In this document: positions 43,132-64,000 of the stretch, in pieces | Numbering within the stretch: position 1 is the first letter of the stretch | Layout of the letters: every line of letters begins with the position of its first letter | From: Microcoleus sp. | GTDB lineage: Bacteria > Cyanobacteriota > Cyanobacteriia > Cyanobacteriales > Microcoleaceae | Assembly: GCA_042408215.1 (NCBI GenBank) | Contig: JAYFMW010000026.1 | Span: 32,001-96,000, forward strand | DNA: 64,000 nt | Reading direction: 5' to 3' | The notes under the pieces: generated by a model | Database searches by the model: none | The model's input: the letters and a program-made list of their open reading frames with translations, nothing else | Told to the model about the DNA's origin: nothing | Program-made: the position numbers and the translations under genes

Positions 43132-46100
43132 ATGATTGATTTTCGCAACACAAACACCCTCTGGTCTTCAATATTAGCCGAAACTTTACAGCGTCTGGGA
43201 TTAACTACCGCCGTCATTTCTCCCGGTTCGCGATCGGCACCATTAACAATAGCCTTTGCCCAGAACCACAAAATAGAAACTATTCCGGTTTTAGACGAAC
43301 GTTCAGCCAGCTTTTTTGCATTAGGAATTGCCAAAAAAACCCATTTACCCGTCGCACTAATTTGCACATCTGGAACCGCCGCAGCCAACTTTTATCCTGC
43401 GATCATAGAAGCCAGAGAAAGTCGAATTCCGCTGCTAATATTCACAGCCGATCGACCTCCCGAACTGCGGGATTGCCATGCTGGACAGGCTATCGACCAA
43501 GTAAAAATCTACGGCAACTATCCCAACTGGCAAGCCGAATTAGCCATCCCTTCTGCGTCCATAGGAATGTTAGGCTATTTGCGGCAGACGATCGTGTATG
43601 CTTGGGAGCGATCGCAATTTCCAACACCCGGCCCCGTTCACCTCAACATCCCCTTTCGCGACCCACTTATACCCGTTCCAGACATTGCTGTAGAAGCTTT
43701 AGAAACACAATTTGATATCGAAGATTTCTTTGCAGGATTAGAACCGATTGTTGCAGGAGAAACCTCTACCCCCCCCAGCCCCCCCTTAGCAAGGGGGGGA
43801 GCAGGAAGTCCAATAGAACCAAGCCCCCCCTTGTTAAGGGGGGGAGAAGAAAGTACAATGCAACAATGGCAGAAGTGCAGCAGAGGGATAATTATTGCGG
43901 GCGTTGCACAGCCTCAATTTCCCGAAAAATACTGTAGTGCGATCGCCCAAATCTCCAAATCATTAAACTGGCCAGTTTTAGCAGAAGGACTATCCCCAGT
44001 CAGAAACTACGCCCAACTCAACCCCCATCTAATTTCCACCTACGATTTAATCCTGCGAAACCACGAACTAGCAGATAAACTAACCCCAGAAATCGCCATT
44101 CAAATTGGAGACTTACCCACAAGCAAAGAACTACGAAACTGGTTAGACAAAACCCAACCCAGACGATATATAATCGACCCCAGCCACCACAACTTCGATC
44201 CCCTACAGGGCAAAACAACCCACCTGCGAACCTCCGTAGAGCATCTAGCCACTGCTATTTCCCCTCAAGTCCCCCCCCTGATTAAGGGGGGGTTAGGGGG
44301 GGTTCAAGATCGGGGCAACCACGGGGGGATTGCCCCTACAGACAATCAAACAGAAAACCAGAATTTTGTAGGGGTAGTGCCCCCGTGCCTACCCCTCACC
44401 ACCAATGAGGGCAACCACGGGGGGATTGCCCCTACAGACAATCAAACAGAAAACCAGAATTTTGTAGGGGTAGTGCCCCCGTGCCTACCCCTCACCACCA
44501 ATGAGGGCAACCACGGGGGGATTGCCCCTACAGACAATCAAACAGAAAACCAGAATTTTGTAGGGGTAGTGCCCCCGTGCCTACCCCTCACCACCAATGA
44601 GGGCAACCACGGGGGGATTGCCCCTACAGACAATCAAACAGAAAACCAGAATTTTGTAGGGGTAGTGCCCCCGTGCCTACCCCTCCCCACCAATGAGGGC
44701 AACCACGGGGGGATTGCCCCTACAGACAATCAAACAGAAAACCAGAATTTTGTAGGGGTAGTGCCCCCGTGCCTACCCCTCCCCACCAATGAGGGCAACC
44801 ACGGGGGGATTGCCCCTACAGACAATCAAACAGAAAACCAGAATTTTGTAGGGGTAGTGCCCCCGTGCCTACCCCTCACCACCAATGAGGGCAACCACGG
44901 GGGGATTGCCCCTACAGACAATCAAACAGAAAACCAGAATTTTGTAGGGGTAGTGCCCCCGTGCCTACCCCTCCCCACCAATCAGGGCAACCACGGGGGG
45001 ATTGCCCCTACAGACAATCAAACAGAAAACCAGAATTTTGTAGGGGTAGTGCCCCCGTGCCTACCCCTCCCCACCAATGAGGGCAACCACGGGGGGATTG
45101 CCCCTACAGACAATCAAACAGAAAACCAGAATTTTGTAGGGGTAGTGCCCCCGTGCCTACCCCTCACCACCAATGAGGGCAACCACGGGGGGATTGCCCC
45201 TACAGACAATCAAACAGAAAACCAGAATTTTGTAGGGGTAGTGCCCCCGTGCCTACCCCTCCCCACCAATGAGGGCAACCACGGGGGGATTGCCCCTACA
45301 GACAATCAAACAGAAAACCAGAATTTTGTAGGGGTAGTGCCCCCGTGCCTACCCCTCACCACCAATGAGGGCAACCACGGGGGGATTGCCCCTACAGACA
45401 ATCAAACAGAAAACCAGAATTTTGTAGGGGTAGTGCCCCCGTGCCTACCCCTCCCCACCAATCAGGGCAACCACGGGGGGATTGCCCCTACAGACAATCA
45501 AACAGAAAACCAGAATTTTGTAGGGGTAGTGCCCCCGTGCCTACCCCTCACCTCTCCATCAAAGGAATACCTCCAACTTTGGCACAACACCGAAACCCAA
45601 ATCAGACAAACAATAGACCAAAAAATATCAGCAATTCAAAACATAATTGAACCCAAAGTTTCCTGGCTGCTGTCCCAGATTTTGCCACCAGGAACACCAA
45701 TATTTATTGCTAACAGTATGCCAGTCAGAGATGTAGAGTTTTTCTGGAAGCCGAATCACTTAGAAATAAAACCTTTTTTCAATCGCGGCGCTAACGGCAT
45801 AGACGGCACATTATCAACAGCTATGGGAATAGCTCACCGCAATCAAAGCAGCATCATGTTAACAGGGGATTTAGCACTTTTGCACGACACGAACGGTTTT
45901 TTAATTAAACATAAATTTGTCGGTCATCTGACAATTATTTTAATTAATAACAACGGCGGTGGCATCTTTGAAATGTTGCCCGTTGCCAAATTTGACCCGC
46001 CATTTGAAGAGTTTTTTGCCACGCCGCAGCAGATCAACTTTGCTCAGTTGTGTGCAACTTATGGCGTGGAACACGAGATAATTGACGATTGGGAGCAGTT

Positions 46101-46221
46101 AAAAGAAAAATTAAGTTTTTTGCCAAATAGCGGGATTCGTGTCTTAGAATTGCCAACAAATAGGCGTACAGATGCTAAATGGCGGCAAGATCATCTAGGT
46201 AAATTTGCCAAAGATTTGTAA
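43132..46221 (+). CDS. menD: SEPHCHC synthase carrying a ~416-aa in-frame tandem repeat insertion
   Basis: SPGSRSAPL, DERSASFFALG, TSGTAAAN, NRGANGIDG, GDLALLHD and NNNGGGIF motifs. Confidence 0.93.
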   Translation: MIDFRNTNTLWSSILAETLQRLGLTTAVISPGSRSAPLTIAFAQNHKIETIPVLDERSASFFALGIAKKTHLPVALICTSGTAAANFYPAIIEARESRIPLLIFTADRPPELRDCHAGQAIDQVKIYGNYPNWQAELAIPSASIGMLGYLRQTIVYAWERSQFPTPGPVHLNIPFRDPLIPVPDIAVEALETQFDIEDFFAGLEPIVAGETSTPPSPPLARGGAGSPIEPSPPLLRGGEESTMQQWQKCSRGIIIAGVAQPQFPEKYCSAIAQISKSLNWPVLAEGLSPVRNYAQLNPHLISTYDLILRNHELADKLTPEIAIQIGDLPTSKELRNWLDKTQPRRYIIDPSHHNFDPLQGKTTHLRTSVEHLATAISPQVPPLIKGGLGGVQDRGNHGGIAPTDNQTENQNFVGVVPPCLPLTTNEGNHGGIAPTDNQTENQNFVGVVPPCLPLTTNEGNHGGIAPTDNQTENQNFVGVVPPCLPLTTNEGNHGGIAPTDNQTENQNFVGVVPPCLPLPTNEGNHGGIAPTDNQTENQNFVGVVPPCLPLPTNEGNHGGIAPTDNQTENQNFVGVVPPCLPLTTNEGNHGGIAPTDNQTENQNFVGVVPPCLPLPTNQGNHGGIAPTDNQTENQNFVGVVPPCLPLPTNEGNHGGIAPTDNQTENQNFVGVVPPCLPLTTNEGNHGGIAPTDNQTENQNFVGVVPPCLPLPTNEGNHGGIAPTDNQTENQNFVGVVPPCLPLTTNEGNHGGIAPTDNQTENQNFVGVVPPCLPLPTNQGNHGGIAPTDNQTENQNFVGVVPPCLPLTSPSKEYLQLWHNTETQIRQTIDQKISAIQNIIEPKVSWLLSQILPPGTPIFIANSMPVRDVEFFWKPNHLEIKPFFNRGANGIDGTLSTAMGIAHRNQSSIMLTGDLALLHDTNGFLIKHKFVGHLTIILINNNGGGIFEMLPVAKFDPPFEEFFATPQQINFAQLCATYGVEHEIIDDWEQLKEKLSFLPNSGIRVLELPTNRRTDAKWRQDHLGKFAKDL
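44313..45552. repeat. 13 tandem copies of a 96-bp unit made of two inverted GTAG-type REP-like palindromes
   Basis: GACAATCAAAC recurs every 96 nt from 44341 to 45493. Confidence 0.95.
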
Positions 46222-47297: not shown

Positions 47298-48164
47298 TTA
47301 ATCTCGGATTTCCAGGTTGTACTGGCGGCAGAGGGCGATCAGTTTTTGTTGGAAGCGATCGCGCACACTGTCTGGAGAGACGATCGCGCAATCTTCCCAA
47401 TAGGGGGCAATTTCGCGGAAAAACCAGAAGGTATTGAAAATCGGACGGGTGACTCGTCTAATTGGCGGATCGCCTTCTAAGTCGCTGACTTCCACATCGC
47501 CTTGCTTTCGTCTGTAGTTAAAGGCAAGCCTGCCGAATAAGTGAAATTCTACGGAAATTCGCTCTAGATCCGGCAACCAAGTTCGATCGACCGACATCAC
47601 CGCAGCATCTTCAATGCGATCGAGCAGCAGGGTCCAGTTGTGTTCGAGTCCCGGTACGTCTTGATTTCCGTCAGATTCTTCGCAGCGACACATTAAATAC
47701 TGTCGCTTTTCAATAGGGACAATCCGAGCGTGTAAGACTGTGTAACTCCAAAGGCGATCGGCTGCATCTCGATAGGAAAGGCGAAATGGTTGCTGTCTGT
47801 GGATAAAATTATCGATTTTTTGCCGCCAAGCAGGTAAAGGGTTGCTCAAAAACGCCTCGATTTGGGCCCGGAAGGGGAGAGTTAGTTCGCTGCGCGAGCT
47901 CAACAATTGGGCAATTGCCAGCGCTTCATCAATTTTGCCCGAGTCGAGCAATTGCTGTCGGGCGATGTCTAGGGCTTGGATGCGGGTTTGGGGCCAGTCG
48001 TGGTTGGGGGCGATCGTCAGTTGGCGGCGGGCGATCGCTTCTATCAGTTTGGAAATGTTCGGGCGATCGCCCCACGTCTTCCCGAATTCTTGGGCCAAGG
48101 CTTCCAACTGCGCTTTATCTCGTTCAGAAACAGACAGGGTGATCGATTGACCTTTGCGACTCAT
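47298..48164 (-). CDS. CRISPR-associated WYL-domain transcriptional regulator with N-terminal RHH-like domain
   Basis: MSRKGQSITLS..W.DRPNISKL; FRLSY.DA, RQYL, LDRI and FWFFRE motifs; divergent from type I-D cas3. Confidence 0.88.
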   Translation of the reverse strand: MSRKGQSITLSVSERDKAQLEALAQEFGKTWGDRPNISKLIEAIARRQLTIAPNHDWPQTRIQALDIARQQLLDSGKIDEALAIAQLLSSRSELTLPFRAQIEAFLSNPLPAWRQKIDNFIHRQQPFRLSYRDAADRLWSYTVLHARIVPIEKRQYLMCRCEESDGNQDVPGLEHNWTLLLDRIEDAAVMSVDRTWLPDLERISVEFHLFGRLAFNYRRKQGDVEVSDLEGDPPIRRVTRPIFNTFWFFREIAPYWEDCAIVSPDSVRDRFQQKLIALCRQYNLEIRD

Positions 48165-48261
48165 AAATGTACGGACACTTCTTCATTGTACGGGCTTGAT
48201 AATCTCAATTATCGGTGTCAATATGAGGAATATCCACTTTCTACGGACACAGATTCAGCAT

Positions 48262-50442
48262 ATGTCCGATTACCAGATTACCCTCAAATCCGTTTACTCC
48301 TGTCCCGCTGCGGAAATTCCCAAAGGAGTGAAATTACCGGAAAATTGGACGCTTTCTTGGCATCAACTTGAAACTTTAAAGGCAATTCGCGATCCGAATA
48401 TTGATGTCATTTTCAACTCAGCTATTACTAGCGACGGCAAAAGTTTAGCCGCTTTCCTAGAAACATTGCAGACATATTGTTGTGCAGTGGCGCTATATCC
48501 TACTAATGAACTGGCGCGAGATCAGGAGACTCAAATTAAGCGCTATATCGAACAATTCCAGCCCGAACATCAACCCCGCGTTGTGCGACTCAGCGGCTCG
48601 GAATTAGAAATCTATGCAGAAAATGAAAAGCTGAGAAAAGCAGCCGCGATCGCATCTCGCACAGGTCAATCAGAGATTTTATTAACTAACCCTGATATCT
48701 TGCACTATCTCCACCGAGGAGCGTATTTAAGCTCTGAAGATAGCCCCGATAAACTGTGGGGTCGCATCGACAAAGATTTTGACCTGTTCATTTTTGATGA
48801 ATTTCATGTTTTTGCTGCTCCTCAGATTGCCAGCGTCATCAATACCCTGTTATTAATTAGTCATACAAACCGCCGAAAAAAGTTTGTATTTCTGTCAGCA
48901 ACTCCAGACGAGCAATTAATTAGCAGACTAGAAACAGCAGGGTTTCGCTGTCAAACTATCGACCCTTTAAAAGCAGGAAAATATCGGTTTCCCGATCGCC
49001 CTGCGGAAATCGAACAGTTGAAATCAGACTCCTGGCGGCAGATATTGAGGGAAAGTACGCTGACTTTTATTTCCCTAGAACCAACTTCAAAAGCTTCTGA
49101 AACTTGGCTGAAAGACAGCGCAAATCACATCCTGACTCACTTTAAACACAATCCGGGAAGTAAAGGAGCTATTATCCTGAATTCAATTGCTGCCGTCAAG
49201 CGGCTGACACCATTTTTTCGGAAATTGTTCGCGCCTCACGGTTTAGTTGTTGGCGAAAATACTGGGTTGTCGGGAAAAACGGAAAAAGAGCGATCGCTCT
49301 CGTCAGACTTAGTTCTCGGTACTAGCACCATTGATGTCGGGGTAGACTTCAAAATCAATTTGCTGATTTTTGAATCCGCCGATGCGGGTAACTTCATTCA
49401 AAGATTGGGAAGGTTGGGGCGACACGATGGGTGCGATCGCAATGGGGAGTTTATTCAGTTTCAAAATTTCACAGCCATCGCACTCACCCCTAATTTCTTA
49501 GTCGAACGCTTATTTGCAGGCGATACTGCGACTTTAGAGTCTAATGGAATTTACGATCGTCCTTTTTTCTATCAACAAATTCGCGAAAAGTACCGCCAAA
49601 TCAACAATTTTGAGGGATATTATTCGCGGTGGGGTGCGGTGCAGTCAGTTCAAATTTGTTGGGAATTAGGGCACAGGACAATTAAACAGCAGTACGCATC
49701 AAGTCAGAAAGCTTTTCAGGAAGCTGCTCAAAAAGTATTTAAAACTAGCTTGGGGAAAGTGGCCGGTAATATTAAACAGTGGGGCAAAGAGTGGAAAGAG
49801 CGATCGGGAAATAAAACAGGAAATCCGATCGTTGAAGATGCTAGCAGTTTTCGAGGTTCTAGTCCCCTGCAATGCGGCATCTGCGATTTAACCGATTCCC
49901 ATGAGGCAGACAAATTTAAAACTTACGATTTACCAGGAATTTTGAGCAACTTGGAAATCGAACCGATGACGGAATCTGCATTTATGCAAATGTTGAAGGA
50001 GACATCTGAACGCCTTGGGCAACCAATTGCCAAAGGTCGATTTAAACACTGTCTGGCTTTTTTGAAGTTGCGTAGTTATCGGGAGGAAAGACTGAATTGG
50101 AAATTTACTTATTCGGGAAATTTAGAGGAAAACGCTGCTGTTTGGAAAGTTCAGGTGTTGACGGGGATTGAGGTTGTGCAACCTGAGAATTATTGGATCG
50201 GGGAAATCAACAAGCGTTTGAAGAAGCAAGCATTGGTTTGTTATGTGCTGCGTTATCCGGTGGCTGAAGTGCGATCGCGCCTGCGACTGCCGGTGCACTT
50301 TCAGATTTATCCGATTTGCGATCGGTACAGTATCCACGATGGGACTGCACCTTATTCGATCGCCTTTGGGCAGTCGGCGCTGCTTGTGGACACGCTGGCC
50401 CACTGGCTCAAGAGTAAGGGGGATGAAGTATGGATTGCGTAG
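48262..50442 (+). CDS. cas3: Type I-D Cas3' helicase without HD domain
   Basis: DGKSL, LYPTNELARDQ, DEFH, LSATP, TSTIDVGVDF and QRLGRLGRH motifs. Confidence 0.93.
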   Translation: MSDYQITLKSVYSCPAAEIPKGVKLPENWTLSWHQLETLKAIRDPNIDVIFNSAITSDGKSLAAFLETLQTYCCAVALYPTNELARDQETQIKRYIEQFQPEHQPRVVRLSGSELEIYAENEKLRKAAAIASRTGQSEILLTNPDILHYLHRGAYLSSEDSPDKLWGRIDKDFDLFIFDEFHVFAAPQIASVINTLLLISHTNRRKKFVFLSATPDEQLISRLETAGFRCQTIDPLKAGKYRFPDRPAEIEQLKSDSWRQILRESTLTFISLEPTSKASETWLKDSANHILTHFKHNPGSKGAIILNSIAAVKRLTPFFRKLFAPHGLVVGENTGLSGKTEKERSLSSDLVLGTSTIDVGVDFKINLLIFESADAGNFIQRLGRLGRHDGCDRNGEFIQFQNFTAIALTPNFLVERLFAGDTATLESNGIYDRPFFYQQIREKYRQINNFEGYYSRWGAVQSVQICWELGHRTIKQQYASSQKAFQEAAQKVFKTSLGKVAGNIKQWGKEWKERSGNKTGNPIVEDASSFRGSSPLQCGICDLTDSHEADKFKTYDLPGILSNLEIEPMTESAFMQMLKETSERLGQPIAKGRFKHCLAFLKLRSYREERLNWKFTYSGNLEENAAVWKVQVLTGIEVVQPENYWIGEINKRLKKQALVCYVLRYPVAEVRSRLRLPVHFQIYPICDRYSIHDGTAPYSIAFGQSALLVDTLAHWLKSKGDEVWIA

Positions 50443-50443
50443 A

Positions 50444-50589
50444 ATATCAAGCCCTAATAGGGTTTGGGTTAAGTCAGGTAGGAAGGTAGAGGAACGAACG
50501 CCATTAGGAGCGCAGCTAATGTTTTCAATCCCTAATAGGGGGTTAAGCTATCAATAAAAATTAATAAGCTTTTCTACCTGTCCACACCC
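50444..50589 (-). ncRNA. Degenerate repeat-spacer-repeat mini-array (crRNA-like regulatory RNA)
   Basis: 50522-50540 matches the reverse-complemented array repeat at 17/19 and 50444-50465 at 18/22; both keep the CCCT-ATT-AGGG hairpin; spacer about 50481-50521. Confidence 0.8.
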
Positions 50590-50595
50590 TACATC

Positions 50596-50636
50596 AGTAT
50601 ACCAAGGATGACAACTATGTTTAGATCGTTTATACT
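50596..50636. promoter_or_regulatory. Back-to-back promoters: minus-strand extended -10 TGGTATACT (50604-50596) and plus-strand ATGACA-N17-TATACT (50608-50636)
   Basis: Sigma70-like consensus matches read directly; not experimentally mapped. Confidence 0.6.
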
Positions 50637-50664
50637 CAGACAATGGAAAGCTTCGCGGCTCTGT

Positions 50665-50697
50665 GAGCAACGATCGCGAGTAGGAACACAGATATGT
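50665..50697. promoter_or_regulatory. Predicted target site of the mini-array guide
   Basis: 23/30 identity between 50489-50518 and 50665-50694, with mismatches at guide positions 6, 10, 12, 18, 20, 24, 30. Confidence 0.75.
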
Positions 50698-50844
50698 AAT
50701 CGCAGCCCTTCTTGTTCTTTAGACAGAACGGTTTTTAGCGTCACTTTATTTGAGTGGGGGTATAACGCCCCCCTTCTGCTCCTGTCAGCAGTCAGCAGCC
50801 GTGAGTCTTTCCAGTCTGTAAAAACTCAAAAGGAGACATTCACA

Positions 50845-51096
50845 ATGCCAAAGCCAAAACGCTCTGGTGAGGGAGGGCCTTTGCTATTTATTCCCTATTC
50901 CCGGAAACCTTTTTTGGAAAACAAAAAGAAAGTTCGAGGGAGAAATCGCCACCCCTTTGAGTTGCTGGAAAAAGTTCAGAACTTATTAGAAACTGCACTG
51001 GACAGAAATGAGTTTGAGTCAGAGGAGGTCAAAGCAGAAGTCTATGACTTTTTAGTAATCCTCCGAGGCTCTAAAAAGGTATCTCAAAGGCGCTAG
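50845..51096 (+). CDS. Orphan 83-aa basic protein, candidate CRISPR-regulated toxin or regulator
   Basis: AAGGAG RBS, ATG at 50845, downstream terminator; no family recognised. Confidence 0.6.
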   Translation: MPKPKRSGEGGPLLFIPYSRKPFLENKKKVRGRNRHPFELLEKVQNLLETALDRNEFESEEVKAEVYDFLVILRGSKKVSQRR

Positions 51097-51128
51097 ATAG
51101 TAGCACCTTACGAATTTTCATTAGTTAG

Positions 51129-51175
51129 GCTCTACAGGAGTAGTGTAACTACATAAGAGCCTGTAGAGCTCTTTT
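51129..51175 (+). terminator. Putative intrinsic terminator after the 83-aa ORF
   Basis: GCTCTACAGG (51129-51138) / CCTGTAGAGC (51160-51169) followed by TCTTTT. Confidence 0.55.
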
Positions 51176-51220
51176 GTCAAAAATCTCTATCAAAGATAAG
51201 TGAGTTCTTTCATAGACTCC

Positions 51221-51363
51221 CAGGGCTGTTTCATTCTCTTGTAGGGGCGGTGCCCCCGTGCCCGCCCTAGCTCTCAAACACATACAAAATGTCGATGAAG
51301 AGGGTCGGCACGGGGGCACGACCCCTACAAAATTATCGTTTTCTTGAGAATGAAATAGCCCTG
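51221..51363. mobile_element. MITE, 143 bp, 18-bp TIRs, 10-bp TSD CATAGACTCC
   Basis: CAGGGCTGTTTCATTCTC / GAGAATGAAATAGCCCTG (17/18); TSD at 51211-51220 and 51364-51373. Confidence 0.92.
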
Positions 51364-51386
51364 CATAGACTCCCTAGAGGCATAAA

Positions 51387-54300
51387 ATGGCTAAAAAACG
51401 TCAAAAACCAGATGAAGAGTATCAACAACTCTCATTATTTGATATCCCAGTTAATTTGAACTCTGAGCGATCGGATGATCCAGATGATGACTGGTTGCAA
51501 GATGAAGAATTAGGGTCAAACTTTCAAACGTCCGATCGCACAATCGAACCTCAAACTCGCGACTTACTAACCCTCAAACTCTTGCGATCAGCCATTCAGA
51601 GTCAAAATCCAGGCGATCGCGTCATGGCAGACTTCGCAGAATATGTCTTGCCAAATCTGCTGCGAGTTGCCATTGGCGTCACAGCCAAAGGCGGCAAATT
51701 TTTTGACGAACTCGATCGCAAACAAGGAAAAGAGAACGTCAGGCGCGATAACGCAGGCGATCAGTCCCTAAATACTCACCTGCTAAATGGATTATTTCCC
51801 GCTAATTTAATTGAACAGCGGTTAGAAAAACTCGATACCACCGTGCGGCGATCCGTAGGAGAAAAAGAACGGCGGTTAGTAATTGCTGGATTTATTCTCC
51901 ACGACTTTGAAAAATTCCCCGATGTCCCCAACGATTGCCGCAAGTTACCACTAGAAAAGCACCGTCAAATTATTGATGAAAAAGTGCGACAGTTAGGACT
52001 AGATAGCTTGATCAATCCCGACGATCCAGATGCTTATCGAGAATACATTGACGATTTGCTCTGCCTTGCTTACAACGCTCAGCGGCGTTGGGATACTAAC
52101 TGGAATTTTTCCGAATTTGGGTTAAATCCAGTGTTGCGCGATCGCACACTCCGCAGTCTTTCAGACTTAACCTGTTTAGCAGATTCCCTAGCATCTATTA
52201 TCAAACATCCCCAAGATGCAGAAAATACCAGACTAAACGAGTTAATCCACAGCCTCAGCGACGGACAATTAAAATTCACTTATCACAGCATCGCTGAAAA
52301 CAGAGGCGTACTTACTAACGTCGTCAATAACGCTTTAATGGAAGTGCATACGGCGCTGAATACCGACGCTTGCACCTACTATGAACCACTGCTTTACCTA
52401 CCAACAGGTGTAATTTACCTAGCACGGCGGGATGCTCCTGCTATTTCAATTGCAGACTTGCCCGAACGGGTAGTTAGCAAGATTAAACAACTCTGCGCCG
52501 GACAATTGCAACGGCGACAAACTGGATTTGGTAGAGATGGTAAAGGCATGAAATATGCCGAGTATTATAACCTGTTTTTTGATCCGTCAGAGTTGATGCT
52601 AGTTGCTGTTGATGCTACTTTACGCATTCTCAAAATAGGAAAAAACTCTGTTGCCAAAAGTCGCAGCGATAATCTGATCAAATTTCAGCGTCAGGATGTT
52701 TTATCTGCCGATTATAAATTCAATTTTGAGGACGATATTCGGATTGACCAAATTGCTGAACTTGGGGACTTAGTGAGTCGCAAGATTTGGGGAGAACAGG
52801 TTAATACCATCGAAACTGCACGCAAGAAAGACAAAAAACTACCCGCCCTAACTCATCTAGATATTGTCGATGAAATTGCTAAGTTTTGGAACCTGTCCGA
52901 CTATCTACCAGCCCTAAGAGAAATTCAACGGATTAATGAAAGCCTCAAAGAACTTAAACTAAAAGGCAATACAGGCGGCGTTCCTTACGAATGGTACTAT
53001 TTAGCAGCAAAGTACCTAGAACATCACCCAGGAATTGAGGATGTGCGGGAAGTTTGCGAACAGGCGATCGCCCACATTTCCCAAATGATTAAACCCATTC
53101 TTTCACAGTACAAATTGCCCGACGGTTGGGACGATTTGCGGTTGTGGGTAACGCGGGTTGTTATGTTACCCGGAAATACACCATTGGACACAGCATCCGC
53201 TGACGTATTTTTAGATGAATTGGAACGCTACCAACTCGCCAAAAAACAGGGTAGAGGAAGACAGTTAATCTGTTCGATTTCCCATTCAGCTTACACGGTG
53301 ACAGAACAAATGGAATCAGCCGTTTTGTTCACCCCTCAAGTTTACACTAACAAACAAATGTTGGGAGGTTCTAACGCCAAACGGAATATTTCTAGTATTG
53401 CAGGTTTGGAAATGATGCTGAGGCAAATTTTAATGAATCAAACTCAAGCTGTGGGCAAAAAATTTGAAGATGGCAAATATCGCTATCTCTATTTTTATCC
53501 CACATATTACTTCACCCCAGAAACAAATAAGTTTCTGCAAAAAGCCTACACTAGCATTGCCCAAACCCGCTTTGATACCAGCATACGCAATCATTTTATC
53601 AGCAAAGATTTGCAAGCCGATTTTGGGCGCGATCGCTACCAAAGCATCGATGCTTTCCTCATAGATGAAAACATCGAACCAGGAAAAGACCGCACCTTCA
53701 AACTTTCCTATCCCGAAGACCAACCTCTAACATTTTACTTCATGGCGCTTCCCCCCGGTAGAGATGCAACAGATACCGAATCTTGGGTAATGCCAGCTTG
53801 GCTAGCTTTTGCTTTCCCGATGATTCTGGATGTCAAAACCGTAGTTTCAGAGTCGCCAATTCCGCCTTTTAACGACGGTGCAGAATTTGAAGAAACCGTA
53901 TTTCTTGACAGTGTACCCCAAGCTTTTAGGGTATTGACCAAGCGCGATCGCTTTCGTCTCGACTATATTTTAGAAGGATGGGAGGAAAACGGCAAATCTT
54001 ATCCAGCACCTTTGAATGTGTTAACCGCTGCTTATGCGATTCACCTTGATGTTAATGCAAAACAAGGGAAGTCCGGTTATGACTCCAACTGGGGAAAATT
54101 AACTGAACTCGCCACTGATTTTGAAACCAGCCCGCTTTATGTGTTTAGCTACCTAAATAAGTGGGTGCGGAAACAGAAAAATGAAACGGCATCAATTCAA
54201 AAGATTAAGCTTTATGCTTATCATTTTTACCCTTGCTTTGACTCCTATGCCCAACTATAATTTCATGATCAGAGGAACGGATCGACTGAGACAACCGCAT

Positions 54301-54860: not shown

Positions 54861-55874
54861 ATGCCTTTCTTGAAAACAGTTGACTCTAAATTTTTCCATG
54901 CTAACATCCCCTACAAACCAATGGGTAAATATGTACACTTTCTGACTGTGCGGGTGACGGAATCTTATCCCCTATTTCAGACAGATGGAGAACTGAATAA
55001 AGCGCGGGTGAGGTCAGGAATTCAAGACCAAAAACCAATCAGTCGCCTGACCATGTTTAAGCGCAAGCAATCTACACCAGAACGTTTGGTCGGTCGCGAG
55101 TTGCTGCGTAACTACGGTTTTATGACCGCTGAAGACTGCGAATACAATGTCAAGTTTGCCATGAATAACCCTGATTGCATTATCTACGGATTTGCGATCG
55201 GTGACTCTGGTTCAGAGAAGTCAAAAGTCGTAGTTGACACAGCATTTTCAATTACCGCTTTTGACGAATCTCACGAGACTTTTACCCTCAATGCTCCCTT
55301 TGAAAATGGCACAATGGCATCTAAGGGTGAAGCAGGTTCCAAACCAGGCGAAGTTACCAGCCGCATCAATCAGCAAGACCACATCAAACCCCAGATTTTC
55401 TTTCCTAGCATTGTCACCCTGAAAGATCCTACCGAAGCTAGTTTTTTGTATGTTTTCAACAACATCCTGAGAACGCGGCACTATGGGGCTCAAACCACCC
55501 GCACAGGTAGAGTCAGAAATGAGTTAATTGGTGTGGTATTTGCAGATGGCGAAATTACCAGTAACCTCCGCTGGACGCAAGCAATTTACGACAAATTGCA
55601 GCTTGACAATAAGCTGAATTCCAACAACCCTCTCAATGAAGATGATGTGATTATAGCTGCTAGCGCTGCTATCCAAACATTAATGTCTGAGGAATTTATC
55701 GTGCATCAGGACTTTATTGGGAATAAGTTTACACCATTAGTGACAGAGGTTAAAGCTGTTATTGGCAATGAAGATGAACTCAAAAAGATGTTGAAAAAAG
55801 CTGATGACGAGGCTAAAGCTTACGCGAAGAAGCATATCAAGGGTAAAGCGGGATCTACAGCAGCAGCGGAGTAA
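54861..55874 (+). CDS. cas7: Type I-D Cas7/Csc2 backbone subunit
   Basis: FKRKQSTPERLVGRELLR, PDCIIYGFA and YGAQTTRTG motifs. Confidence 0.93.
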   Translation: MPFLKTVDSKFFHANIPYKPMGKYVHFLTVRVTESYPLFQTDGELNKARVRSGIQDQKPISRLTMFKRKQSTPERLVGRELLRNYGFMTAEDCEYNVKFAMNNPDCIIYGFAIGDSGSEKSKVVVDTAFSITAFDESHETFTLNAPFENGTMASKGEAGSKPGEVTSRINQQDHIKPQIFFPSIVTLKDPTEASFLYVFNNILRTRHYGAQTTRTGRVRNELIGVVFADGEITSNLRWTQAIYDKLQLDNKLNSNNPLNEDDVIIAASAAIQTLMSEEFIVHQDFIGNKFTPLVTEVKAVIGNEDELKKMLKKADDEAKAYAKKHIKGKAGSTAAAE

Positions 55875-55879
55875 CAACA

Positions 55880-56587
55880 ATGGCTATTATTTACCGCTGT
55901 CAAATCGAGTTGCACGATAGCCTTTATTTTGCAACTCGCGAGATAGGGAGACTTTACGAAACAGAGCCGGTAATTCACAATTACGCGCTTTGTTACGCCC
56001 TCGGTTTGGTGGATAGCGAAATCTATGCCACCACCGTTTCCGAAGAACATTCCTATCGCTATTTCTGTCCCGAACAAATCCCCAAATACGAGCCGCATTT
56101 AACGGCGCTCAACCAACAGGGGATTTATGTTACTCCAGGGCGATCGCTTTTTCACTCCTCCACTCTCAATACTTGGAAATACGCCAACAACAACTATCAC
56201 GTTGAGATGGAAAAAACCCAGAAAAATATCCCCAGTTTTGGCAGAACCAAAGAAATTGCTCCTGAAAGCAAATTTGAGTTTTTCATCATCTCAGAAAAGG
56301 CTTTGAAACTGGCTAAATGGATTCGTTTGGGAAAGTGGATGAGCAAAGCAGCAGTCGAAATTGTAGAACAGAAGGAAGTGAAACGCTCAACTTCTGAAGC
56401 TGACTTGATTTTTCCCTATTTGCTCAATCCTTTAGATGTGATGTTTTCTCATCAAGTGATTAGCTACGATGTGGTAAATATGCCCCCAGTTAGTTTGATT
56501 CAAAATGTCAAAATGAGAGGGCGATATTACCTATTTGAAAACCTCAAAATTCCAGCCTGTATGCAATATCGCTTTAAGGCTGATTAA
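55880..56587 (+). CDS. cas5: Type I-D Cas5/Csc1
   Basis: FATREIGRLYET..IHNYALCYAL and WIRLGKWMSKA motifs. Confidence 0.93.
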   Translation: MAIIYRCQIELHDSLYFATREIGRLYETEPVIHNYALCYALGLVDSEIYATTVSEEHSYRYFCPEQIPKYEPHLTALNQQGIYVTPGRSLFHSSTLNTWKYANNNYHVEMEKTQKNIPSFGRTKEIAPESKFEFFIISEKALKLAKWIRLGKWMSKAAVEIVEQKEVKRSTSEADLIFPYLLNPLDVMFSHQVISYDVVNMPPVSLIQNVKMRGRYYLFENLKIPACMQYRFKAD

Positions 56588-56886: not shown

Positions 56887-57770
56887 ATGCCACACAGCCT
56901 AGTCCTAAACCTCCTCCCCCAGGCCCCAATTCCCCCCGGATACCTCACCGGAAGACACCTGCACGCCCTATTCCTCACCCTCGTGAGCACCGCAGACAAA
57001 AAACTCGGCGACTACCTCCACGAAGCCACCGCCCAAAAATCCTTCACCCTCAGCCCTTTACAAACCAAAAAATGCCCTTTCAAAAAACATCATTCCCTCC
57101 AATGGGAACACACAGAACCAATTCCAGAACATACCCTCTGCTGGTGGCGAATTACTCTCCTTGATGACAGTTTATTCAGCAAATTAACTCACCTTTGGCT
57201 CAATCTTAATCCCGCTCATCCCTGGCACCTGGGCCCGGCGGATTTGCTGATTACGAATATCTTCGGCACTGCTCAATTAAATCAACCTTGGGCTAATGCT
57301 TGTACTTACTCTCAATTGTACGAACAAGCTTCGGAAACTAACCGCTTAATTGCTTTTAGTTTTGCGACTCCTACTACTTTTAGGCAGGGGAAATTCGATT
57401 CGGTGATTCCTACTAGAGAATGCGTTTTTAACAGTCTTCTCAGTCGCTGGAATAAGTACAGCCCGCATCGCAGATTCCCGATCTTTCCTTCGATGCACTG
57501 TTTTCGACATTTGTCAATATAAAAAGCGAAAAAGTGACTAACTATGAAATCAATTTTGTGGGGATGGTTGGGGAGGTTAGTTATCGGATCTTGGGTGATG
57601 TGGAACCTTTGGCGATTAAGCAAATTAATGCTTTGGCTGATTTTGCTCTTTACTGCGGGGTTGGGAGGAAAACTCCGATGGGGATGGGAATGACACGGCG
57701 AATTGCGATCGCACCTTCTCAAAAAATTACCAAGCAAAATGCAGAATTATCGTTCCCGATTCAAGGGTAA
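56887..57770 (+). CDS. cas6: Cas6 endoribonuclease, frameshifted near 57460-57535
   Basis: MPHSLVLNL..GRHLHALF, FATPTTFRQ; the C-terminal G-rich loop YCGVGRKTPMGMG is in a separate ORF. Confidence 0.88.
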
Positions 57771-58753: not shown

Positions 58754-59761
58754 ATGGGAACAGTTTACATTACTCAAGAAGATGCTTTTATCGGCAAGAA
58801 TGACGAACGTCTTACCGTTAAAGCAGACAAAAAAAATTTGTTGGATGTGCCGTTAATTAAAATTGATGGTGTTGTTGCTTTGGGACGCGCCACAGTTTCT
58901 CCGGCTGTGGTTGTGGAACTTTTGGAACGTCACATTCCTTTAAGCTTTCTGACTGAAACGGACGTTATTTAGGCAGGCTGGAACCGGAAATGACGTAAAA
59001 ATATTTTTGTGCGAAAAGCTCAGTGGCAAGCAGCAGGCGAATCTGAAAAGTCAGTACATTTAGTCAGGGGTTTTGTACGAGGTAAACTCAAAAATTACCG
59101 CAATACTTTGTTGGAATGTCAGCGCAAATATTCTCCACAAGATTTTGAAAAATCGATCGCCCAATTGAAACAAGTCATCGCGTCAATAGACAAAACTGCG
59201 AGTATTAATTCCCTGCGAGGATTAGAGGGGGCGGGTAGTGCGACTTATTTTGGCTGCTTCAATCGGCTGATTCGCGTGCCTGAATTTAGCTTTGAAGTTC
59301 GCCGTCGTCGTCCGCCGACCGATCCGGTAAATTCTCTGTTAAGTTTGGGATATTCTCTGTTGCGGCACGATGTTCAAAGTGCGGTGAATATTGTGGGGTT
59401 CGATCCGTATTTGGGATATCTTGCATTTCGAGCGCTATGGCCGTCCTTCCTTAGCACTGGATTTGATGGAAGAATTTCGACCGTTGGTAGTTGATGCTGT
59501 AGTGTTAACAGCGATCAATTTGCAGAAAGTTGCTCCTAATGATTTTACGGCAGAACCGTTGAGCGGTGCGGTTTCTTTGACAAAAGAAGCGCTGCACAAT
59601 TTTTTACGACTTTACGAGCAAAAGAAACAGTCAAAATTTAAGCATCCAGTGATGGGAAAGTCGTGTGCACTTATCAAGAAGCTTTTGAAATTCAAGGGCG
59701 GCTGATGGCTAAGTATTTGATGGGTGAAATTGACAAGTATCCACCTTTAGTTTTGTACTAG
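58754..59761 (+). CDS. cas1: Cas1, split by several frameshifts
   Basis: Three consecutive fragments: MGTVYITQ.., LRGLEGAG..RRPPTDPVNSLLSLGY, SLALDLMEEFRP; ends KYPPLVLY stop. Confidence 0.88.
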
Positions 59762-60290: not shown

Positions 60291-63200
60291 GCCGCAAAAT
60301 ACCTAAAACCCTATCAGGGATTGAAACCCTGGCAAATTCAACTCTTCCATTACTCGATCGCGTGCCGCAAAATACCTAAAACCCTATCAGGGATTGAAAC
60401 GCCGGTGGGGATATTCATGCGATTATTTCTGCCGCCGCAAAATACCTAAAACCCTATCAGGGATTGAAACGATAATTTTTTTTCAGCAAGCCACTGAACA
60501 TCGCGCCGCAAAATACCTAAAACCCTATCAGGGATTGAAACTCCATAATCGATCGAGCTAAAGCCGACTGCGATCGGGGCCGCAAAATACCTAAAACCCT
60601 ATCAGGGATTGAAACGGGCAGATTGATTTTGAGCTGCGATCGCAAGCTGTGGGCTAGGCCGCAAAATACCTAAAACCCTATCAGGGATTGAAACGATCAA
60701 GCATCTCCCGAGCTTCAACGTATAATCTGTGAGCCGCAAAATACCTAAAACCCTATCAGGGATTGAAACACAGTGCTCTATGACGAGTAACGCAATGGCC
60801 GCCAGCCGCAAAATACCTAAAACCCTATCAGGGATTGAAACGCTGAATGAATCATCGCTCAGTAAAAAATTACCATGCCGCAAAATACCTAAAACCCTAT
60901 CAGGGATTGAAACTTAGCGGCTAATGCTACTGATACCGTAGCATTAGCGCCGCAAAATACCTAAAACCCTATCAGGGATTGAAACCCCGCAATTGGGCTA
61001 AGCGGCTGTTCGTCGCTTCTTTCGCCGCAAAATACCTAAAACCCTATCAGGGATTGAAACCAGAATCACCGTTCTCAGAACGTGCAGCTAGCTTGGCCGC
61101 AAAATACCTAAAACCCTATCAGGGATTGAAACAGCCATTTTGCCGACATCGGCAAAATGGGCACCCCAGCCGCAAAATACCTAAAACCCTATCAGGGATT
61201 GAAACGAAAATGGCTGCTACGATGCCTCTATTTCTAAATGCCGCAAAATACCTAAAACCCTATCAGGGATTGAAACTTATTTTGAGATAATCCTGGCTAT
61301 AGATGACGGGCCGCAAAATACCTAAAACCCTATCAGGGATTGAAACAGAGGAAGTGTGTTCGCCCACGGGCGAAAAAACCTATGCCGCAAAATACCTAAA
61401 ACCCTATCAGGGATTGAAACTTCGCGGTGTTTTTAGCTTAATCTGCAAAGCGCTAAAGCGCCGCAAAATACCTAAAACCCTATCAGGGATTGAAACAATC
61501 TCGGATTAGCCCTAGCACCGCCTAATACGAGCCGCAAAATACCTAAAACCCTATCAGGGATTGAAACTTAACCGACTTGACCCCCTTGTCGATCGCAGAT
61601 GCGCCGCAAAATACCTAAAACCCTATCAGGGATTGAAACGAACTAACTACAGCTTGTTGGACGCTAGGAAGAAGTGCACCGCCGCAAAATACCTAAAACC
61701 CTATCAGGGATTGAAACAATCAGAACAGGAGCTAATATCTGTGCCGTTGAGCCGCAAAATACCTAAAACCCTATCAGGGATTGAAACAACACTAACTTAC
61801 GGGGAGCAATCCCTCTTTTCTTTCGCCGCAAAATACCTAAAACCCTATCAGGGATTGAAACGGAAGCAATATTAACAATACCCCGTCCGCTCTTTTGCCG
61901 CAAAATACCTAAAACCCTATCAGGGATTGAAACATTATAGTTACTTATATAAATCAAATTTGTAGCAAATTGCCGCAAAATACCTAAAACCCTATCAGGG
62001 ATTGAAACAGAACCGGGGAGGATTAGGACTAAACAATGGGGTGCCGCAAAATACCTAAAACCCTATCAGGGATTGAAACTCCATCAAGATTACCTATCGC
62101 GCCCCGGTACAACCCCACGCCGCAAAATACCTAAAACCCTATCAGGGATTGAAACCTCGTGGCTAGCGATCGCCTCCCGTACTTTCTCCCATGCCGCAAA
62201 ATACCTAAAACCCTATCAGGGATTGAAACCGTTGCTTGGACTTTTTCTGGCGTTACTTTGGATTCAGCCGCAAAATACCTAAAACCCTATCAGGGATTGA
62301 AACGTAGGAGTCTTGGTGACTCGCTATATGCTCTTCTAGCCGCAAAATACCTAAAACCCTATCAGGGATTGAAACACAAAATTGGCTCCGAGAAAACGAA
62401 AGCTTGATGGCCGCAAAATACCTAAAACCCTATCAGGGATTGAAACGATTGACATTTAGCCGATGTTCGGCAGACCTGCGCCGCAAAATACCTAAAACCC
62501 TATCAGGGATTGAAACGAACTTGCGCTTGAATTTGTGACGTTTTTTGCTGAACAGCGCCGCAAAATACCTAAAACCCTATCAGGGATTGAAACCTATTTC
62601 CTTGTGATACCGTTGCAGCCACAAAGGGCCGCAAAATACCTAAAACCCTATCAGGGATTGAAACTCAATACAGGAATCTTCATCAGGGAATTGAATAGCC
62701 GCAAAATACCTAAAACCCTATCAGGGATTGAAACGGATGCCCCCGCAGCGGAACAACAATTTGTCAAAGTTTGCGCCGCAAAATACCTAAAACCCTATCA
62801 GGGATTGAAACCTGTGTCTGGTTTTCTGAGCGCCGCCAGATTGTAACTGCCGCAAAATACCTAAAACCCTATCAGGGATTGAAACTGATAATCTTAAAAG
62901 CACTTCGCCAGCGCCATATAGCCGCAAAATACCTAAAACCCTATCAGGGATTGAAACTGGGTAGATGAGATAGATGATTGCAATAGGTGGGCCGCAAAAT
63001 ACCTAAAACCCTATCAGGGATTGAAACGGGCCACAGGCTATTGTATATTTTGTCCTCTTTGGGCCGCAAAATACCTAAAACCCTATCAGGGATTGAAACA
63101 TCTATTAATTTCACTCCAATTAATGACGATTTTTGCGCCGCAAAATACCTAAAACCCTATCAGGGATTGAAACTATTGCCAGCAAACCATTTTGCCTGCT

Positions 63201-64000
63201 GCAAAAATTGCCGGCCGCAAAATACCTAAAACCCTATCAGGGATTGAAACTTTTTCCTGCGAATTCCTCCTCCCATTTCTTGAGCCGCAAAATACCTAAA
63301 ACCCTATCAGGGATTGAAACGAGAGCTATTCCCGTCACTCATCGCTTCGGCCATCAGCCGCAAAATACCTAAAACCCTATCAGGGATTGAAACCTGCAAA
63401 CTTGCAAGCTGCTTCAAACTTCCAACTTGCCGCAAAATACCTAAAACCCTATCAGGGATTGAAACGTCCTCTACCCCCGTCGTTTCAGTGATTACTGCTG
63501 GGCCGCAAAATACCTAAAACCCTATCAGGGATTGAAACAAACATCCAAGACTTTAATTCCTTATGCGCCGCCCAAGCCGCAAAATACCTAAAACCCTATC
63601 AGGGATTGAAACTACACCCACCGAAACTGAGTATCAAAGATATAAACAGCCGCAAAATACCTAAAACCCTATCAGGGATTGAAACTTAATCAAAATCCGG
63701 CTGTTAGTAGCAGCCGGGAGCCGCAAAATACCTAAAACCCTATCAGGGATTGAAACGTTCCCAGTGCCAAAGATGCAGAAATTTCAACATACGCCGCAAA
63801 ATACCTAAAACCCTATCAGGGATTGAAACCAGGCGCAGAAAGGACTCTAGGTGGTGGATTGACGCCGCAAAATACCTAAAACCCTATCAGGGATTGAAAC
63901 ACCTTTCGGTGGGCGAAATTGGTGCTACCGATGTGCCGCAAAATACCTAAAACCCTATCAGGGATTGAAACATTACAGGACTATTTCTAATTTCACAAGT
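60291..64000 (+). CRISPR. Type I-D CRISPR array, 37-bp repeat GCCGCAAAATACCTAAAACCCTATCAGGGATTGAAAC, 51 repeats counted, continues past the window
   Basis: Apparently identical repeats with unique spacers of about 33-42 nt; ATTGAAAC 3' end. Confidence 0.99.

Follow-up and report, generated by a model that had tools for sequence, protein, structure and literature searches.

The question that this locus raises is what a CRISPR-like guide is for when its partner sequence lies in the same locus, pairs with it over a long stretch, and carries neither the flank nor the seed pairing expected of a type I target. We examine it in a window of 64,000 nt (the whole stretch of DNA that was analysed), where NCBIfam profile matches place the finding in a cyanobacterial type I-D CRISPR-Cas locus. 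The type I-D gene set and the array are all present, with cas4, cas1 and cas2 downstream of cas6 and the other components positioned as in Table 1. A homologue search with a neighbouring ORF gives Microcoleus proteins as its closest named homologues.

Table 1. Features of the locus, with positions counted from the first base of the window
Feature	Position	Strand	Basis and details
cas3' (type I-D helicase)	48154..50442	+	NCBIfam TIGR03158 cas3_cyano, E 9.9e-115
Distal degenerate repeat (psiR2)	50444..50480	-	alignment to array repeat; motif search
Pseudo-spacer, the candidate guide (41 nt)	50481..50521	-	p1 = 50521; p4-p33 = 50518-50489
Proximal repeat (psiR1)	50522..50558	-	8-nt 5' handle 50522-50529; hairpin 50530-50540
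Promoter-like site that could drive the mini-array	50596..50623	-	-35 TAAACA, 16 nt, TG-extended -10 TATACT; consensus scan only
Leader promoter-like site	50608..50636	+	-35 ATGACA, 17 nt, -10 TATACT (50631-50636); consensus scan
Structured leader enclosing the long site	50644..50813	+	closing helix 50644-50660 with 50797-50813
Long seedless site	50665..50697	+	50665-50694 pairs with p33-p4; 50695-50697 face p3-p1, unpaired
Flank at the PAM position	50698..50700	+	AAT on this strand, ATT in the sense of the protospacer; differs from GTN
Conserved 83-aa ORF	50845..51096	+	RBS AAGGAG; 3' of the leader; no family match
cas10d, first gene of the effector operon	51387..54260	+	NCBIfam TIGR03174
csc2 (cas7)	54861-55874	+	NCBIfam TIGR03157; after cas10d
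csc1 (cas5)	55880-56587	+	NCBIfam TIGR03159; after csc2
cas6	56887-57522	+	NCBIfam TIGR01877; after csc1
Main CRISPR array	60291..64000	+	37-nt repeat with ATTGAAAC at its end, 51 copies; runs off the window

The mini-CRISPR and its guide

The cas3' stop codon is followed, after 1 nt, by a mini-CRISPR of 115 nt (50444-50558) that lies on the minus strand between cas3' and cas10d, in an orientation opposite to that of cas3'. Repeat alignment and motif search resolve it into two repeat-like units, which have the hairpin of the main array, around one spacer-like sequence. In the distal unit the hairpin is kept (CCCTAATAGGG at 50452-50462) and the last 8 nt are degenerate (CTTGATAT). The handle of the proximal unit, ATTGAAAA, has 7 of the 8 bases of the canonical ATTGAAAC, and comparison with relatives identifies the additional A as a C-to-A change at the last handle base. 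The same element stands directly 3' of the cas3' stop in relatives, in many of which the handle is canonical. Because the repeat adjoining the guide in these relatives ends in the canonical ATTGAAAC, the guide register that we use, in which p1 is the base after the handle, is justified. No metatranscriptome contig falls on 50388-50575, where the mini-array lies, a gap that by itself proves nothing.

By anatomy and place, and as judged from its sequence, the element is a regulatory mini-CRISPR of the known CreR or crRNA-like-RNA class. Shmakov 2023 (PMC10120712) describes type I-D mini-arrays between cas3 and cas10d that are transcribed opposite to cas3, and whose partial targets are PAM-flanked, seed-anchored and located at cas10d or cargo promoters. 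The present element agrees with these mini-arrays in its place, its orientation, its two repeat-like units and the better preservation of the proximal one. It is also like the CreR elements that Liu 2023 (10.1101/2023.03.10.532045) describes in types I-B, I-E and V-A, with I-D cases found by hand (Fig. S7), in being a degenerate mini-CRISPR whose handle-giving psiR1 part is kept. The CreR guide steers its own effector to its own locus in autorepression, acting at DNA level on sites that are PAM-flanked, seed-started, short (e.g., 15 consecutive nt) and promoter-adjoining (10.1101/2023.03.10.532045). The term 'I-D' is absent from two later crRNA-like-RNA preprints.

The state of the locus in this particular genome calls for some care. 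The cas6 gene is split into two ORFs and cas1 into three; the cas6 frame has 215 aa, against whole frames of 279-291 aa in relatives, and its break adjoins A5 runs. Since cas6 and cas1 are interrupted and the last base of the handle is changed, the circuit may be decaying in the window genome; alternatively, the assembly may carry indel errors.

Guide, long site and six-base register

We now consider the match between the guide and its partner. An ungapped alignment of 50489-50518 with 50665-50694, which are direct repeats 176 nt apart, gives 23 identical bases out of 30. In the guide numbering the mismatches are at p1-3, 6, 10, 12, 18, 20, 24 and 30, and also at p34-39; in the plus-strand numbering of the 30-mer they are at 4, 10, 14, 16, 22, 24 and 28. 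Pairing is found at 23 of the 25 positions within p4-33 that are not multiples of six (non-6n positions; the multiples of six are called 6n). Both the identity and this count had been put forward in a sequence-only reading of the locus, and both are confirmed. The probability that 7 mismatches among 30 bases include all five members of a class modulo 6 is 8.8e-4 when any class is allowed, and 1.5e-4 for a given class.

The same reading had called for a shuffle test of a chance match within 300 nt. When the 300 nt that follow the mini-array are shuffled 20000 times with dinucleotides preserved, the best match is 21/30 and 23/30 is never reached. A scan of the whole 7.36-Mb genome on both strands (14,722,892 positions) finds, apart from the guide and this site, no 23/30 match, and the next best match, 21/30, is found twice. 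Scoring the non-6n positions over the genome again makes it the best non-self match, with 23/28 against 20/28 for the next. The guide/site match is real and far from chance.

The PAM-proximal end of this site is different from that of a known mini-CRISPR target. The site has neither the PAM nor the seed by which the CreR or crRNA-like mini-array class is defined, and there is no GTN+seed site scoring at least 8/10 for the window guide within 1.6 kb; a genome-wide scan with this guide gives no informative seed match near the cas genes. A 1-nt sequencing indel in the seed had been suggested as a possible cause, but five same-genus genomes (L002-L006) refute it. They carry the guide and the site of the window, and their guide differs from it at p1 and p5 while the site is identical and of equal length; the unpaired p1-3 recur in other guide families as well. 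A bulged TAATG/TATG alignment that pairs p1-3 was dropped, as it is not kept in these five relatives.

The next question is "does this kind of pairing exist in other loci?" A DNA search of 61 genomes gave 17 loci and showed that other genomes of the genus have the element too. A second search, with the 200 C-terminal residues of Cas3', covered 401 genomes of the class, 93 of which had a match, and the DNA 3' of cas3' was taken for the 60 best-scoring places, excluding G000, G003 and G147 (contig end); 30 lower-scoring Cas3' places lie outside the survey. The 60 places and the 17 earlier loci make 77 stretches, one of which, L006, is left out of the counts, and the 60 stretches with a recognisable proximal repeat at most 330 nt from the cas3' stop are the 60 loci counted below. 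The element holds the same position, between cas3' and cas10d of a type I-D locus, in 60/60. About three to five guide families are found among the loci and, because the loci are related, the counts overstate the number of independent events.

We define a long site as a downstream match at no fewer than 20 of the 25 non-6n positions of p4-33. Such a site is present in 35 of the 60 loci, where no second site within the 1.6 kb scores above 16; in the other 25 loci, too, the best score is at most 16. When guides are paired with unrelated loci as controls, 0/480 reach 20 and the maximum is 19. The 35 loci hold 32 distinct guide/site pairs that belong to at least three sequence families.

In these 32 pairs, the mismatch frequency is 0.78 at the 6n positions (random, 0.75) and 0.14 at the non-6n positions of p4-33, with mismatches at p6, 12, 18, 24 and 30 in 24, 22, 19, 29 and 30 pairs respectively. 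Since the 6n positions had no part in the choice of the pairs, mismatching there at a near-random rate is an unbiased sign that the 6n bases are unconstrained, which is what flipping out by Cas7 would produce. The pairing has boundaries on both sides: p1, p2 and p3 are mismatched in 17, 24 and 25 of the 32 pairs, which is near random, and p34-36 are random. The flank is GTN in none of the pairs, being ATT in 9, ACT in 8, AAT in 4, ACG in 3, TCT in 2 and one of six others once each. The non-canonical seed and PAM pointed out in the sequence-only reading are, by these counts, general to the long sites.

The guide and the site also co-vary, in counts that related loci inflate. For the large family, cognate guides and sites match at 21.75 of the 25 positions against 18.49 for non-cognate ones, and none of 5000 permutations reaches the observed total; for a smaller family, the values are 21.20 and 15.75, and 30 of 5000 permutations reach it. 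Two or more different matched bases are seen at 15 of the 25 non-6n positions. That the register reflects selection on Cascade-type pairing rather than a plain duplication, as had been proposed from the window alone, is strongly supported by the mismatch frequencies and by the co-variation. Wobble asymmetry, a possible sign of RNA pairing, was looked for in the 111 non-6n mismatches: 36 are G:U-compatible and 21 are the reverse transitions, but these cases are not independent of each other. In orientation the site is uniform, the guide being complementary to the sense strand in 35/60 loci and the opposite arrangement being seen in 0/60.

It was conceivable that a chance match, or a functionless duplication in decay, had been mistaken for a site, given two direct repeats so close to each other and cas genes (cas6, cas1) that look broken. 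The uniqueness of the match in the genome, the period-6 mismatches, the co-variation and the recurrence in 35 loci refute this explanation, and we leave it practically no probability.

A register of six bases is shared with another kind of effector. Type III guides, whose handles typically end in GAAAC, pair with the transcript in runs of 5 nt separated by a flipped sixth base, and the pairing beside the handle decides activation, not binding. A type III (Csm/Cmr) complex might use the present guide through the shared 8-nt handle and 6-nt rhythm, with the unpaired p1-3 keeping Cas10 silent during binding or cleavage of the RNA, and the window genome does encode a Csm1-type Cas10 (TIGR02578, E 1.1e-177, C20:526794-529046). 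Unlike a type III element, however, this one keeps its place in a type I-D locus in every locus counted and also occurs in genomes without a detected type III cas10. The genome G370 has the window-type guide and site (L022) and, at 99% completeness, no match to either Cas10 family, which weakens the type III explanation; G411 (L071) has only sub-threshold Cas10 matches. We regard the use of the guide by a type III complex as very improbable.

Two kinds of site in the same loci

The loci also contain sites of the type described in PMC10120712. A canonical GTN+seed site is found in 50/60 loci against 33/480 in the null, at a median of 103 nt from the guide; it pairs from p1, and p6 and p12 are often mismatched. 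Among the best canonical sites, 49 of 50 are flanked by GTT or GTC; for 45 of 50 the protospacer is a plus-strand sequence, which means that the guide pairs with the other strand. Canonical sites are a separate class here; the DNA-site grammar of the effector is therefore present in these loci, and the long site departs from it. Both kinds of site occur in 29 of the 35 long-site loci and the canonical kind only in 21 loci, leaving six loci with the long site only: the window, the four same-genus relatives that were counted, and L022. No canonical site was found in any member of this window family (L001-L005 and L022; L006, taken separately), so the long site must act alone there.

The long site is, then, a second and distinct kind of site, which is conserved and has neither a PAM nor p1-3 pairing. 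PMC10120712 also noted mismatches at sixth positions, in a search that was seed-anchored and gave a canonical PAM in every hand-examined case, whereas the long site of the window has no PAM. Unlike the sites of PMC10120712, the long site pairs through p33, uses the strand opposite to that of most canonical sites, and lies in a structured leader. The main text of PMC10120712 does not contain 'mRNA', 'without a PAM' or 'second target', and its supplements could list such matches. While the mini-array kind is known from comparative genomics (Shmakov 2023; Liu 2023), no description of a PAM-less long site or of an RNA partner was found in the literature searched, supplements aside.

The co-occurrence of the two kinds of site suggests a possible role as a decoy, in which the leader RNA would soak up guide-loaded effector and relieve the repression at the canonical site: the same binding with the opposite logic. 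The 29 loci that carry both sites for the same guide agree with such a role, and long pairing without a PAM would bind tightly and harmlessly. The window family, however, has the long site alone, with no canonical site to relieve, and we find the decoy quite improbable.

The leader, and whether RNA or DNA is bound

We turn our attention to the surroundings of the long site. The consensus promoter scan of the stretch yields 3 sites where 1.7 are expected in shuffles, and the hexamers of the leader promoter are kept in L022. A transcript would probably start near 50643, and the site would then occupy about +22 to +55; the start is uncertain because two contigs begin some 50 nt upstream, at 50588 and 50594. 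The promoter scans in the relatives L041 and L042 were empty, and the other promoters outside the window were read by eye. The site lies close to a presumed promoter in the window family and, as judged by eye, in other families; this was counted against RNA as the partner, as it suits a roadblock on DNA too.

The leader that encloses the site is structured. The segment 50643-50860 folds better than 200/200 shuffles (MFE z -3.44), and a consensus fold with L022, which belongs to a different genus, retains the long-range helix; of the changes in it, one is compensatory and three are one-sided. In the large family (24 sequences), the site is enclosed by a closing helix of 10 bp in which 94.6% of cells are paired; sliding the partner lowers this to 49.6-68.1%. 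Of the 10 pairs, 6 are changed on both sides, and 0/500 shuffles come up to the observed helix. No Rfam family covers the leader or the mini-array, the eight matches being all far below the gathering scores.

In the window family, the 83-aa ORF begins 145 nt after the site, a distance which implies that the site does not directly mask the ribosome-binding site. The ORF has 10 close proteins in a homologue search, all hypothetical, and Pfam and NCBIfam give no family for it or for the small ORFs of relatives (one 14-bit bHLH match was ignored). The long site of the third family precedes an ORF of 62-65 aa, and that of the largest family lies 3' of a small ORF and 5' of cas10d or cargo genes. 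In the CreTA systems, the guide of a mini-CRISPR silences a neighbouring small gene as long as the effector is intact; the CreTA site, which has a PAM, lies in the promoter, and CreT itself is a small RNA. The present locus recalls CreTA in having a small conserved ORF after the site, and toxin-antitoxin cargo is common in relatives; the 83-aa ORF, a putative toxin gene at most, matches no Pfam or NCBIfam family.

Metatranscriptome contigs from three studies together cover 50588-51106: one, 50594-51103, is identical to the window, and others span 50588-51106 and 50687-50996. Another contig starts at 50656, skips 51211-51363 and continues into cas10d. As the contigs are unstranded, their ends uncertain, and DNA a possible source, they do no more than hint that one RNA carries both the site and the ORF.

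The binding properties of the effector are known from in vitro work. Schwartz 2022 (PMC9123187) reports flank-independent binding of ssRNA by the Synechocystis I-D Cascade at ~11 nM, during which the PAM-recognition domain is disengaged, and a need for GTN in its binding to dsDNA; RNA cleavage by cyanobacterial Cas7d is given there as not known. Although these experiments used a fully matching synthetic RNA, the independence of the flank is the same as that which the long site would exploit. The sequence-only reading had suggested regulation through the 5' leader RNA rather than DNA. The suggestion fits the orientation of the site, the structured leader, the contigs and the ssRNA binding of PMC9123187, and together these make RNA the most likely partner.

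Two partners made of DNA have to be weighed against the leader RNA. The effector could bind dsDNA at the long site as a CRISPRi-like roadblock to transcription, accepting for binding alone a relaxed flank, mostly A-N-T, in place of GTN. The window site is just 3' of a promoter-like element, that of the third family starts within a few bases of -10-like motifs (by eye), most of the 32 pairs have A at -3 and T at -1 (the ATT, ACT and AAT flanks), and DNA is the target of the known CreR and crRNA-like RNAs (10.1101/2023.03.10.532045, PMC10120712). Several observations point the other way. The dsDNA binding of I-D Cascade was shown with a GTN PAM (PMC9123187), and the canonical sites in these very loci use GTT or GTC with a seed. 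An R-loop begins at the PAM-proximal seed, whereas p1-3 are unconstrained here; the A-N-T flank is part of a conserved block and shared by descent; and a roadblock would not need the conserved RNA helix around the site. We judge the roadblock unlikely, though it is an alternative to be taken seriously.

The other DNA partner would be single-stranded, i.e., the non-template strand exposed near the start site or in replication, which the guide would invade PAM-distally without a PAM. I-D effectors do bind ssDNA with high affinity (PMC10212523, PMC9123187), in 35/35 loci it is the non-template strand to which the guide is complementary, and the p33 end of the third family's site adjoins the presumed start (by eye). 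A transcription bubble, however, is much shorter than a 30-nt duplex, the window site begins ~22 nt after the inferred start, and the site of the largest family follows a small ORF. Moreover, the S. islandicus effector cuts the ssDNA that it binds (PMC10212523), which would be harmful at the own locus. An exposed DNA strand is, to us, an improbable partner.

Proposed action and its meaning

Combining the information above, we give a probability of about one half to the reading in which the I-D Cascade, carrying the guide of the mini-array, binds the leader RNA without a PAM and so regulates its own operon. The minus-strand mini-CRISPR would be transcribed and processed to a crRNA-like guide that carries an 8-nt handle, and this guide would be loaded into the type I-D effector (Cas10d, Cas7d, Cas5d). 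Its positions p4-33 would pair with the sense strand 176 nt away while Cas7d holds every sixth base out. The partner would most likely be the single-stranded leader RNA of a transcript that contains the 83-aa ORF and, by read-through, cas10d. Binding of the effector would alter the fate of the leader RNA, most likely lowering expression, and a post-transcriptional autoregulatory loop would result. Since the site has no GTN PAM and p1-3 are unpaired, neither opening of the dsDNA nor recruitment of Cas3' is expected there; with no attack on the DNA to be expected, the locus can tolerate ~25 paired bases against itself. The broader statement, that in nature a crRNA-like RNA directs a type I effector to the structured leader RNA of its own operon while the DNA copy stays safe, we hold tentatively, as a little short of an even chance.

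The known regulatory mini-CRISPRs use a PAM and a short seed at promoters; the long site breaks both rules, yet it is conserved. A review (PMC10212523) treats the physiological role of single-stranded targeting as an open question, with no natural RNA target known, and the long sites are a concrete natural candidate substrate for the single-strand binding seen in vitro. A locus that holds ~25 self-complementary bases without autoimmunity would also be useful for the design of binding-only type I guides. If the reading is true, the long site would be the first physiological role for ssRNA binding by the type I-D Cascade, and CRISPR autoregulation across the cyanobacteria would have a post-transcriptional layer beside the known DNA-level sites.

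Flank of the long site and handle of the mini-array guide

We consider the long site, which pairs with positions 4-33 of the pseudo-spacer guide of the mini-CRISPR and lacks a GTN PAM. Over the 32 distinct guide-site pairs from cyanobacterial loci, the triplet at its PAM position is mostly A-N-T, most pairs having A in position -3 and T in position -1. This flank could reflect shared descent, membership of a conserved block of the leader, or a preference in single-stranded binding. The 8-nt handle of the mini-array is variable in its final base, which is C, T or A among the proximal repeats of 60 loci; all main-array repeats of the window have C as the final base.

Features of the window (coordinates in the window)
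Feature	Position	Detail
menD reading frame including the tandem copies	43132-46221	1029-aa ORF
Tandem 96-nt unit	44217-45668	13 copies
Final handle base, proximal repeat	50522
-35 region	50606-50620	GGATGACAACTATG
PAM-position triplet of the long site	50698-50700
Hairpin 3' of the 83-aa ORF	51128-51177	stem GGCTCTACAGG / CCTGTAGAGC, 10-11 bp; loop about 21 nt
Stretch omitted from one metatranscriptome contig	51211-51363	153 nt
Arms of the inverted repeat	51239-51268 / 51301-51330	30 nt each
Cas10d N-terminus with Q-L-S-L-F-D	51387-51470
cas6	56887-57770	211 aa + 78 aa
cas1	58754-59705	three pieces

Between the long site and cas10d

A short way 3' of the conserved 83-aa ORF lies a terminator-like hairpin, absent from the scan output because its loop is long, and after it comes TCTTTTGT. 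Further toward cas10d, an inverted repeat lies within a stretch that one metatranscriptome contig omits by joining 51210 to 51364, and the matches of many unrelated contigs to the repeat are confined to its arms. The omitted stretch has the appearance of a mobile element, small and palindromic, that inserted between the 83-aa ORF and cas10d. A G+C-rich palindromic motif akin to the inverted repeat (51239-51330) is found in the tandem unit of the menD frame, whose middle copies are 99-100% alike.

In one guide family (L010, L031, L034, L042, L048, L063, L073) the long site is followed by ORFs of 62-65 aa that start with the motif Y-x-Q-L-x-L-F-D. This motif is similar to Q-L-S-L-F-D, which is conserved close to the Cas10d N-terminus, and the family of the 83-aa ORF contains a comparable stretch, L-x-L/F-I-P-Y. 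These likenesses may represent mimicry of a docking motif.

Several loci, including L012, L013, L023, L041, L044, L048, L058 and L073, carry cargo genes between the long site and cas10d. Judged by eye, these look like nucleotidyltransferase/HEPN-type and other toxin-antitoxin pairs, a reading that agrees with the enrichment of toxin-antitoxin cargo reported by Shmakov et al. (PMC10120712).

Broken frames of cas6 and cas1

In the window, cas6 is split into two ORFs in different frames, with A5 runs adjoining the break; in relatives the cas6 frame is 279-291 aa long. The first break of cas1 is an in-frame stop and the second a change of frame. Both genes show either real decay or assembly indels.

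Canonical sites and the -35 region

The -35 region of the window is similar to the canonical target that another guide family has (compared in L054 and L032), namely GTC/GTT followed by ATGAC/ACGAC...ACTA. The GT is missing there, and the window's own guide is unmatched. This may be a recombinant locus from which the DNA-type site has been lost.

In the largest guide family (L026, L041, L044, L053 and others), two canonical sites of PAM and seed form a facing dyad about 100-120 nt from the guide, with GAC on one side, GTT on the other and a few bases between them. Such a dyad would permit two effectors on one promoter.
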